A stretch of DNA of 52,541 nucleotides. Source: a virus (lineage: Duplodnaviria > Heunggongvirae > Uroviricota > Caudoviricetes). The position numbers were made by a program. The stretch's first letter is position 1. Every line of letters starts with the position of its first letter. Location of the stretch: IMG/VR virus record IMGVR_UViG_2531839449_000043; one strand, given 5' to 3'. This document shows, piece after piece, positions 48,401 through 52,541 of this stretch.

Positions 48401-51400
48401 GGTACACATGAAGGCTGTCCGGTCGCGTCTGGAAATCAACAAGGTAGCTTCTGTTTACGGTACAGAAAATGGAAAAAAACTGAAGAGTATGGAAATGACC
48501 GGGTTAACGTTGTACCGGAGAGAAAAATTAAGCCGCGATAACCTTCTGCACAGAGGGCTCCAATTGCCCAAAGGGGAACATTCTTATCGCGGCTCTGCGG
48601 ATAAAATACTCTATCCTGAAGATATTCGCAAGGGGCCGTATTACTCCCGTACCAGCAGTCTGACACCGGAAGAGACAATTGCATCGCGTTTTGTGCGCCA
48701 GATGCAGGATAAATTCCAGGTGCTGAAAGCTGTTCAGGAGAATATCCGTAAAACTGGCGGCAAAGTGGACGACAGTAACAACGCTTATATGGCGGAAGAA
48801 CTCTTCCACGGGAAGGCGGAAAACGACCTGAACGTGATGAAGGAGCGCTACGTTCAGCCACTGGCTAAATTACTGGCGGACTACAAAATTGCGCAGGCCG
48901 ATCTGGATGAGTACCTCTACGCCCGTCACGCGCCGGAACGTAACGCGCATATCGCGAAAATCAACCCGAAAATGCCGGACGGCGGTTCGGGGATGACCAA
49001 CGCGGAAGCGGCGGAAATCATGCAGCGTGTACGTAACAGTGGCAAACAGGCACAGTATGACCGTCTGGCAGGGATTATTGACGATATGCTGGCCCGTCGC
49101 CGTGAGCTTATCCGTGAGGCCGGACTTGAAGAGAACGGTGTGGTGGATGCCTGGCAGAACGCCTACCGTTACTACGTTCCCCTGAAAGGTCAGGATGTTG
49201 ACGGTGTGGTGTCACTGCCCCGTACAGGTAAGGGCTTCACCATCGGCGGACGTGAAAGCAGGCAGGCCATGGGGCGTGCATCCCGGGCACAGTCTCCGTC
49301 CACTCAGGCGATACAGGACCTGAGCGAATCGCTGATCCGCCATCGCAAAAACGAAGTGGGTAACGCCTTCCTGAAACTGGTGCAGGATAATCCCGACAAG
49401 GATTACTGGCAGGTATTCACCGATGACAGACCGGATACCATGCGGACGATTGCAGAGCGCAAGGACCAGGAAACTGGTGAAACCATTCGCGAAGTTGTCG
49501 AACGCCCTGTACCGATGGCAATGATGGCAGACCGGTACTTCACCACCAAAAAGAACGGCAAAACGTACTACATCAAACTCCATGATCCGCGCCTGATGCG
49601 TGCGATGAAGAGTATGGGACCGGAAACCAGCAATGCCTTTGTTCGTACGCTGGGGAAAGTTAACCGCTTCCTGGCAACGGTGAACACGTCGTATAACCCG
49701 GAATTCCTGGTCAGTAACTTCATCCGTGACGTGCAGACGGCGGTGATGAACCTGAAGGCGGAGCAGGGAAGGAGCGACGGTAAACTGAAAGGGCTGGATA
49801 ACTTATCCGCCCTGGCTGTGGTGAAAGACAGCCGTTCTGCCATGTCAGCCGTATACGCCAGTCTGCGTGGTAAAACCCTCACGGGAAAAGGTGCACAGTG
49901 GCAGAAGGTGTGGAAAGAGTTTGTTGAGGACGGAGGGAAAACCGGCTGGTTTAACATGGGTGACCTTGAAGGCCAGCAGAAGGAAATGGATCGCCTTGTC
50001 TCACTGGCGAAGGGGGGATGGAAAGGCCAGAGTATCGGTGCATGGAATTCGTTCCTTAACCTTGTCGAGGATGCCAACGGTGCGGTTGAAAACGCTCTGC
50101 GTCTTTCTGCCTATAAGCACGCCCGTGATGCCGGTTTGTCACGCCAGCAGGCGGCGTCTCTTGCCAAAAACATGACGGTGAACTTTAACCGTCGTGGTGA
50201 GCAGGGGGCGCTGATGAATTCGCTGTACATGTTCGCCAACGCCAGCATTCAGGGAACGGCAAATCTGGTGAGAACGCTCGGACATCTTAATGGTGAGGGA
50301 CCTTTACTGGAGCGCCTTCGCTGGAAGAATCTGAATGTTCCGCAGAAAATCGCGCTTGCCGCTGTGGGAGCAGGTTATCTGCTTGGCTCGCTTAACCGCA
50401 GCGTGGCGGGTGAGGATGATGACGGGGTTAACTGGTATGACAAGGTGCCGTCTCATGTGAAAGAGCGTAACCTCGTCATTATGAAATCGGTGTTCGGGGG
50501 CAAGGCCGGAGAGTACTGGAGTATTCCTCTGCCTTACGGGTACAACGTTTTCTTCCTGCTCGGGCATACTGCTGAAGGTGTGGCGGCGGGTGACCTGACG
50601 GCGTCCCGTGCTGCCGGTAATGTTGGTGGTGGTGTGCTTGGTGCATTCAGCCCGATTGGCAGTGAGACGTCGGAAACACTGTCCGGGGCATTGCTGAAAA
50701 ATGCAGCGCCGACCATTCTGCGTCCGTTTGCGAACCTTGCCATGAATGAAAACTTCATGGGGGCGCAGATTTACCAGGAGAACATGCCGTTTGGTACACC
50801 AAAACCTGACAGCCAGCTGGGAAGACGTTCAACGCCAGAAGCGTACAAGGCGTTTGCATCCTGGCTGAATGCGTTCTCAGGTGGCAGCCAGTACCGTCCC
50901 GGCGCGGTGGATATCACACCGGAATCGCTGAAATTCTGGATTGACTATATCTCCGGAGGGACAGGGCGCTTCATTTCCAAAACCACGGATGCGGCGGTGA
51001 AATCGCTGAATGGTATTGATATACCGGAACAGCAGGTGCCCTTCCTGGGGAAAATTTCGGGGGAGGTGATGCCGTATGCAGACCAGCAGAAGATGTACGA
51101 CCGGATGACAGAGATTGCGCAGTATCACGCAGAGCTGAAGAGTCTGACCGGTGCAGAAAGAACGGCGTTCATTGACGAGAACAACGGAAAATTGTCGATG
51201 AACGGGCTTATGCAGGATACCCGGAAGAGACTGAAGGATTTGCGTAAACAGCGTGATGCCATTTACGCCGACAGTACTCTCAGTCTGGCGCAACAGTCGG
51301 CGATGGTGAAATCGGTAGAGCGGGATATGAAAATTGCCGTGGATCGGTTTAACCGCGAGTACAACAAAAAAGTGGGAGTGGATTAACAGAAATGGCCCCG

Positions 51401-52541
51401 TACGGAAGTGCGGGGCATTCTTAACATAATGTGTACATAAGTGAGTACTGTTGTGATGGATGTTTTGGTATTTAATGCATTTAAATCAATGGATTGATAT
51501 TTATGTTCATTATATCCATTTAACTAAGAGGACAATGCGGCATGAGTATACCCGCTAATGGACTGCGGGGTAAGTACGCTGCCGCTCGATTGCTTAAACC
51601 CTCGCCATTTATGCTGGGTTTTTATCATTTTTCTTAATGTTTTCCGCACGTTCTGCTTTTTGGCGTGCTTCTGCTTTACGCTTGTTGCTCATGTCGTTAC
51701 GAATCTGTGCATGACTCATTAACGCGAAGATAAAGGTGCCGCCGCAGATGTTCCCCGCTAAAGTAGGTAGTGCGAAGGGCCAGATGAAATCGCTCCAGTG
51801 CAGCGTGCCGTTAAACACCAGATAGAGGATTTCAACAGAACCGACAACGATGTGGGTGGTGTCACCCAGTGCAATAAGCCAGGTCATCAAAATAATCACC
51901 ACAATCTTTGCCGCACCCGCTGCAGGAAACATCCAAACCATAGTGGCGATCAGCCAGCCGGAAATGATCGCGTTGGCAAACATCTCGCTGGGGGTGTTCT
52001 TCATCACATCCATGCCGATTTTGACAAATGCATCGCGAGTTTCTTCATTGAAGATAGGCATATATTCAAATGCCCATGCAGCAATACCTGTCCCGAGAAT
52101 ATTACCCAGCAGCACGACGCCCCATAATCGCATAAGTAAGCCGACGTTGCTCATTGTCGGTTTTTGCATGACGGGTAGTACCGCAGTCACGGTGTTTTCG
52201 GTAAATAATTGCTGGCGGGCCATAATGACGATAATAAAACCAAAGGTATAACCGAGATTCTCCAGTAAGAAGCTGCCTGGCACTCCTTCCAGTTCGACAT
52301 GAAATATCCCTTTTGCCAGTAGCGAAGCGCCCATCGACAGACCCGCCGCAATGGCTGACCACAGTAGCGCCATTGCGTCGCGTTCCAGCTCTTTTTCACC
52401 ATCCTGGCGGATATGCTCATGAATTGCCATCGCCCGGGAGGGGAGTCGGTCTTCATCTATTTCTATTTTTTTGCCGCGCTCTTTTTCTTCGCTCTCAACT
52501 TCAATTTCGTCGCTGTGTTGATCAATTTTGTCGTTGTCCAT

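Follow-up and report, generated by a model that had tools for sequence, protein, structure and literature searches.

IMG/VR virus record IMGVR_UViG_2531839449_000043, a stretch of 52,541 nucleotides (nt) assigned to Caudoviricetes and hereafter called the window, ends on its right in the Escherichia coli gene yfdC. Between the last phage gene and yfdC, at 51387-51608, lies the junction of a prophage with argW, the host gene for tRNA-Arg(CCU), of which a short 5′ piece is present here. The features of the junction are listed below, where attP denotes the attachment site of the free phage, attB the empty host site, attL and attR the two junctions of the prophage, and P and P′ the phage arms on the integrase side and on the late-gene side.

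42966-51386, plus strand: last phage gene before attR, an open reading frame (ORF) annotated as an LPD38/LPD5 domain-containing protein of 2806 amino acids (aa)
51387-51509, minus strand: phage P′ arm of attR, the unique phage DNA adjoining the core, which in the free phage AB255436 runs on into the core and the integrase-side arm
51395-51416: GC-rich hairpin just past the last phage gene, seen on folding, with GCCCCG paired to CGGGGC and 2 further pairs
51430-51437, P′ arm: candidate arm-type integrase box TGTACACA, resembling the TGTACnCA boxes of the P arm
51442-51449, P′ arm: candidate arm-type integrase box AGTACTCA, with the same resemblance
51510-51534, minus strand: attR core, the T at position -1 plus nt 1-24 of argW tRNA-Arg(CCU), 25 base pairs (bp) identical in attP, attB, attL and attR
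51535-51608, minus strand: host spacer from the yfdC stop to the tRNA, the native upstream or leader region of argW, 74 nt beyond the shared T
51609-52541, minus strand: yfdC, the host flanking gene, an ORF of 310 aa in the formate/nitrite transporter family

Attachment core and the two prophage junctions

The junction is marked by 24 nt, GTCCTCTTAGTTAAATGGATATAA, which are identical to nt 1-24 of argW as annotated in E. coli K-12 MG1655 (NC_000913.3 2466309-2466383) and in strain 14EC047; the match to the start of argW that an initial annotation had proposed is thus exact. The window contains this sequence a single time (51510-51533, minus strand), and by chance 0 matches would be expected even when 3 mismatches are allowed. 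Beyond nt 24 the likeness is lost, the tRNA reading CGAGCC (CGAGCCCC) and the window TGAACA (TGAACATA). The K-12 coordinates for the end of yfdC (2466233) and the start of argW (2466309) leave 75 nt between the two, and the window has the same spacing, as the initial annotation had stated. The host stretch, comprising the end of yfdC and the spacer, differs from K-12 by two mismatches, one of which falls within 51535-51608.

Pairwise BLAST places the limits of the shared segment. Homology to attB spans 51510-52541 and homology to the attP of Stx2 phage 86 spans 48700-51534, so the core is the 25 bp at 51510-51534; it is 25 bp and not 24 because the T preceding tRNA nt 1 is common to attP and attB. 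Unique phage DNA ends at 51509 and host homology begins at 51510, exactly where the right prophage end had been proposed. A four-way alignment of attP (phage 86), attR (window), attL (UTME-6) and attB (14EC047) shows reciprocal arms around TGTCCTCTTAGTTAAATGGATATAA, which is common to all four. The free phage and the empty site therefore hold an identical core whose arms are exchanged in attL and attR, as in the Campbell model, and the free-phage attP core and this alignment together bear out the proposed integration in argW. In the free phages Stx2-converting phage 86, Lyz12581Vzw and vB_EcoP_phi296, the phage side and the 24 nt form one contiguous stretch, and the same stretch closes many prophage records named 'Stx2a-converting phage'. 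The order in phage 86 (AB255436) is last late gene, P′ arm, core, P arm and integrase gene (int).

The same boundary recurs across sequenced strains. Each of the 5426 complete E. coli genomes has a match to the yfdC side, which in non-lysogens ends at window position 51510/51507, within their annotated tRNA-Arg, so that host homology breaks off exactly at the junction in thousands of genomes. In 210 of the 5426, the match continues into a gene annotated as an LPD38 domain-containing protein, the arrangement of attR, and attL is found in 209. An intact tRNA at the junction, which the initial annotation held to be absent, was found neither by ARAGORN, whose only matches are three phage tRNAs at 15044-15295, nor by Rfam at gathering score; a further Rfam search of 51300-51700 at E<=10, aimed at a degenerate tRNA, gave three chance-level matches with no tRNA model among them.

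The toxin genes and the phage records identify the element. As in Stx2-converting phages, the genes for both subunits of Shiga toxin 2 (Stx2) follow Q and the phage tRNAs in the late region:

15044-15295: three phage tRNA genes, with anticodons CAT, TCG (Arg) and TCT (Arg), just upstream of stx2A, found by ARAGORN
15386-16345: stx2A, ORF of 319 aa
16357-16626: stx2B, ORF of 89 aa

In DNA sequence the stx2 stretch has 96% identity to one that bears the annotation 'Shiga toxin Stx2 subunit A'; against records of Stx2a-converting phages the window reaches 98% identity over 25 kb. Window positions 51387-51608 are almost certainly the attR of an Stx2a-converting, short-tailed lambdoid prophage (Sepvirinae) that is integrated in argW and related to Lyz12581Vzw, Stx2 phage 86 and the Stx2_122200 prophage record.

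The phage entered by site-specific recombination, a tyrosine integrase joining attP to attB at their shared 25-bp core (argW -1 to +24). The yfdC side thereby retains the native upstream region of argW and the 24-nt tRNA stub, forming attR, and a complete tRNA would be rebuilt at attL from the duplicated core and the original 3′ two-thirds, beside the divergent integrase gene. Strand exchange took place somewhere within the 25-bp core; the exact overlap region cannot be mapped because both partners carry the same core sequence.

The window has no further copy of the core, even when up to 3 mismatches are tolerated, and the other prophage end lies outside it. Since window position 1 aligns to position 3431 of the closest prophage record, LC645415.1, the left end is expected about 3.4 kb outside. 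The core and integrase anticipated for that end by the initial annotation are thus not to be had from the window itself, which holds one core copy, and are seen in related lysogens as a tRNA with an adjoining integrase. In three of these (UTME-6, O111:H- 110512 and O157:H7 NE 1092-2) the far end carries a complete tRNA-Arg(CCT) and the integrase WP_001218308.1 (389 aa), which is divergent from the tRNA and about 195 nt from its 5′ end. This P4-like tyrosine integrase has the Pfam domains Arm-DNA-bind_3 and Phage_integrase, and is followed in all three lysogens by a small gene for an AlpA-family/helix-turn-helix regulator. The integrase is adjacent to attL or attP in the relatives and the free phage, and lies outside the window; likewise, of the pair formed by a displaced tDNA fragment and a complete copy, the fragment is in the window and the complete copy in the three related lysogens only.

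Two other readings of the 24-nt stub were weighed against recombination at a conserved core. Chance resemblance, in which the 24-mer has nothing to do with argW and the junction is no attachment site, would draw on the shortness of the match; we reject it outright, given that 24 of 24 positions agree, that chance predicts 0 such matches, that the 75-nt distance to yfdC preserves synteny and that host homology ends at precisely this point. A destructive insertion is very improbable. It supposes that the phage, or a later deletion, removed argW nt 25-75 and left a lysogen without functional argW and with 24 nt of dead remnant, and the window taken by itself fits this picture, as it has the stub alone, with neither a second core copy nor a match to a tRNA model. 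The phage also brings a tRNA-Arg(TCT) at 15219-15295, and because tRNA-Arg(UCU) can read AGG, argW is plausibly dispensable. The attP of the free phage, however, already holds the same 25 bp, so the stub is the recombination core and not a product of truncation. Moreover, all related lysogens inspected have a complete tRNA at attL, and the genome counts for attL and attR agree (209 versus 210); both observations argue that the tRNA is not lost on integration. The earlier statement that phage DNA takes the place of the remaining tRNA accordingly holds at this junction only, every lysogen examined having a complete tRNA-Arg(CCU) at the other. Two points weigh against site-specific integration with a rebuilt tRNA as the account of this particular prophage: its other end is outside the window, so that the intact tRNA and the integrase are supplied from close relatives, and no genome in the collection is identical over the full window, the best matches being about 98-99.5%.

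Position of the core in argW and other occupants of the gene

In the argW cloverleaf the acceptor stem comprises nt 1-7/66-72, the D-stem nt 10-13/22-25, the D-loop nt 14-21 and the anticodon nt 34-36. The core thus covers the 5′ strand of the acceptor stem, nt 8-9, the 5′ strand of the D-stem, the D-loop and three of the four nt in the 3′ strand of the D-stem. It belongs to the 5′-fragment or D-loop sublocation, whose core is made up of the 5′ acceptor strand and the D-arm and whose displaced 5′ tDNA fragment comes to lie upstream of the intact gene. The classical 3′-side type, with a core in 3′ tRNA sequence and with element and integrase downstream of the gene, does not apply, the core here being nt -1 to 24. 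With its core at the tRNA gene's 5′ end, the prophage is upstream of argW, and in related loci the element is upstream of the tRNA with int facing the tRNA 5′ end. This sublocation is the less common one and a known minority class: in the Islander data, islands that leave a 5′ tDNA fragment number 159 of 3919 (PMC4383910).

Several other elements occupy argW. CPS-53/KplE1 (with IntS) and HK620, Sf6 and Kapi1 have the same target, a tyrosine recombinase with Arm-DNA-bind_3 and an intact tRNA beside int. For the IntS of CPS-53/KplE1 the core is 16 nt long and lies at the 3′ end of argW (PMC2951348), whereas the present prophage uses nt -1 to 24 and sits upstream. By BLASTP, significant likeness between IntS and the Stx-phage integrase is confined to the N-terminal arm-binding domain (29% identity over 93 aa). 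Comparison with the yfdC-argW-intS region of K-12, on which the initial annotation relied, therefore holds for yfdC and argW, which match, and fails for intS, which belongs to the different element CPS-53/KplE1. The two sites can be occupied together, as in O157:H7 NE 1092-2. In that strain (locus L041, 11124-13882) the 75-nt argW stands between intS, in a P22-like remnant on the 3′ side, and the Stx2a phage int on the 5′ side, so that two unrelated integrases flank opposite ends of one tRNA gene simultaneously. A similar arrangement is described in Klebsiella pneumoniae, where clade I.d integrases target the 5′ end or D-loop of the tRNA-Arg gene 'arg2A', the elements are placed upstream of the tDNA and both of its ends are reported to be occupied at once in some cases (bioRxiv 10.1101/2020.11.02.365908); we liken these elements to the present prophage by their description.

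The closest counterparts are the Stx2a argW prophages of O157:H7 clade 8, O111 and O145 (AB255436, Lyz12581Vzw and the LC6454xx/LC6160xx records), which have the same integrase-type attP, core and yfdC-side junction and the same late-gene end (LPD38 protein), and differ from the window by mosaic differences in the early region only. Over a 701-nt junction stretch (window 51300-52000) UTME-6 is 100% identical. As a full-length match UTME-6 was rejected, BLAST showing that the junction alone is identical and the rest is mosaic. In GenBank records LC645451.1 and LC645415.1 exactly the 24 nt of argW carry the annotation 'duplication due to insertion' of an Stx2a phage, and argW is a published integration site of Stx2a phages in O157:H7 and other Shiga toxin-producing E. 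coli (STEC) (PMC4645166; PMC8309913; PMC7946995). Its occupancy correlates with O157:H7 clades and serves STEC typing (PMC4645166). The junction is thus ordinary and already catalogued in public records.

A promoter-like footprint in the P arm

Integration at the 5′ side parts argW from its native upstream region. That region is retained at attR (51535-51608), where the hexamer TATACT ends 11 nt before tRNA nt 1; a promoter and terminator scan of attR called nothing. The native argW promoter presumably lies in the stranded spacer 51535-51608. Since the element strands the native promoter, some other means of expressing the tRNA is needed, and the rebuilt argW might be transcribed from a promoter in the phage P arm. 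At attL, read in the orientation of the tRNA, the P arm has a promoter-like motif, TTGATT-18 nt-TATTAT, which ends 39 nt upstream of tRNA nt 1 (locus L003, 13299-13328, minus strand).

Relatives of the integrase were gathered from one genome per species, giving 32 loci from Enterobacterales. At 21 of them a tRNA-Arg(CCT) is divergent from int and about 195 nt away, and these 21 are all the loci with at least 67% integrase identity and upstream DNA present (alignment A2, L008-L038). The genera represented include Erwinia, Enterobacter, Pantoea, Brenneria, Xenorhabdus, Providencia, Tatumella, Salmonella, Morganella, Proteus and Rouxiella. Within the core, tRNA nt 5 is a T in E. coli and a C in the majority of the other hosts. 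The spacers between int and the tRNA are poorly conserved, and the columns that are invariant, with no gaps between them, are the TTG of the -35 hexamer, a G at -14 and T1, A2 and T6 of the -10 hexamer. The pattern TTGnnn-18-TAnn[AG]T is present in 20 of the 21 loci, 38-39 nt before tRNA nt 1, as against a mean of 1.9 of 21 in shuffled sequences. Integrase relatives of at most 63% identity (L024-L030, L033, L035, L037 and L039, with L028 from E. coli) have no tRNA gene nearby, up to 1.5 kb upstream where the contig allows, and presumably use a different attachment site.

The same alignment of loci shows three conserved TGTACnCA boxes in the P arm, by the start of int, which are candidate arm-type integrase sites. 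For TGTACNCA as an arm-type motif there is no enrichment over the window as a whole (6 found, 5.1 expected), and what speaks for it is confined to local clustering and conservation in the P arm.

We lean towards reading the P-arm motif TTGnnn-18 nt-TAnnAT, with its G at -14, as a conserved, element-borne sigma-70 promoter that would replace the native promoter of argW. Against this it must be said that the case for a replacement promoter is made of a consensus match and a phylogenetic footprint, that conserved positions at a fixed distance from the core could be integration host factor (IHF) or arm-type recombination sites, and that TTGAT is the core of an IHF site read on the opposite strand. 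The main rival follows from these points: the conserved positions may be protein-binding sites for recombination (IHF, integrase arm-type or AlpA/Xis), with argW expressed by read-through or poorly. We consider this possible and the less probable of the two. It would account for the fixed distance between motif and core in 20 of 21 elements, as expected of architectural sites of an intasome, for an A that is invariant 5 nt upstream of the TTG, and for the frequency of TTGAT, which is like the reverse complement of the IHF consensus, WATCAANNNNTTR. It fits less well with the fact that only the positions most critical for sigma-70 are invariant (TTG; T1, A2 and T6; G at -14) whereas the other hexamer positions vary, with the fixed 18-nt spacing and an orientation that is always toward the tRNA, and with the requirement that an element stranding the native promoter must somehow keep the tRNA expressed. 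In a narrow literature search we found no paper describing promoter replacement in 5′-integrating elements, and the Klebsiella preprint does not discuss it (bioRxiv 10.1101/2020.11.02.365908).

The hairpin at 51395-51416 may be a bidirectional terminator, which would serve the last phage gene and also halt any transcript that starts at the stranded argW promoter; the terminator scan did not call it because its T-tract is weak.

Other features of the window and wider meaning

Of the three phage tRNAs, the one with anticodon CAT is called Met by ARAGORN and is annotated as tRNA-Ile in RefSeq relatives. The tRNA-Arg(UCU) is also able to decode AGG, the codon of the argW tRNA whose locus the phage occupies. 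Immediately downstream of stx2B, at 16701-16902 on the plus strand, Rfam gives a strong match to the small RNA STnc100 (185.7 bits). The single ORF of 2806 aa that precedes attR is a giant late protein typical of these short-tailed Stx phages. In the early region, Rfam finds a C4 antisense RNA and the isrK Hfq-binding RNA side by side at 4278-4465 on the minus strand; the matches partly overlap the 5′ end of a 261-aa ORF (3576-4361, minus strand) and extend upstream of it, an arrangement that resembles a c4/ant immunity module of the P1/P7 type. The segment corresponding to 481-12000 encodes, in related genomes, a DEAD/DEAH helicase, an Eco57I-type restriction-modification methylase domain protein and a type II restriction endonuclease of the BsuBI/PstI family, annotations that suggest a restriction-modification system in the phage. 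In its first 480 nt the window is unlike most of the otherwise near-identical relatives, which marks a mosaic boundary.

The junction sets the right boundary and the insertion locus of an Stx2a prophage, which is useful for annotation and for strain classification. It brings no new biology in itself, and any novelty is limited to the promoter-like footprint of the P arm. Elements that integrate at the 3′ side of a tRNA gene restore its 3′ end. If the P-arm motif is a promoter, its supply would be the 5′-side counterpart of that restoration, and one might speculate that argW expression in lysogens becomes controlled by the element. The stranded host promoter would then fire into the P′ arm and, unless the hairpin at 51395-51416 stops transcription, run antisense to the last late gene at its 3′ end, and the phage-borne tRNA-Arg(UCU) could buffer the decoding of AGG. 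The wider interest would lie in an integrase clade that targets the 5′ end and D-arm of a tRNA gene and hence must supply a promoter for it.

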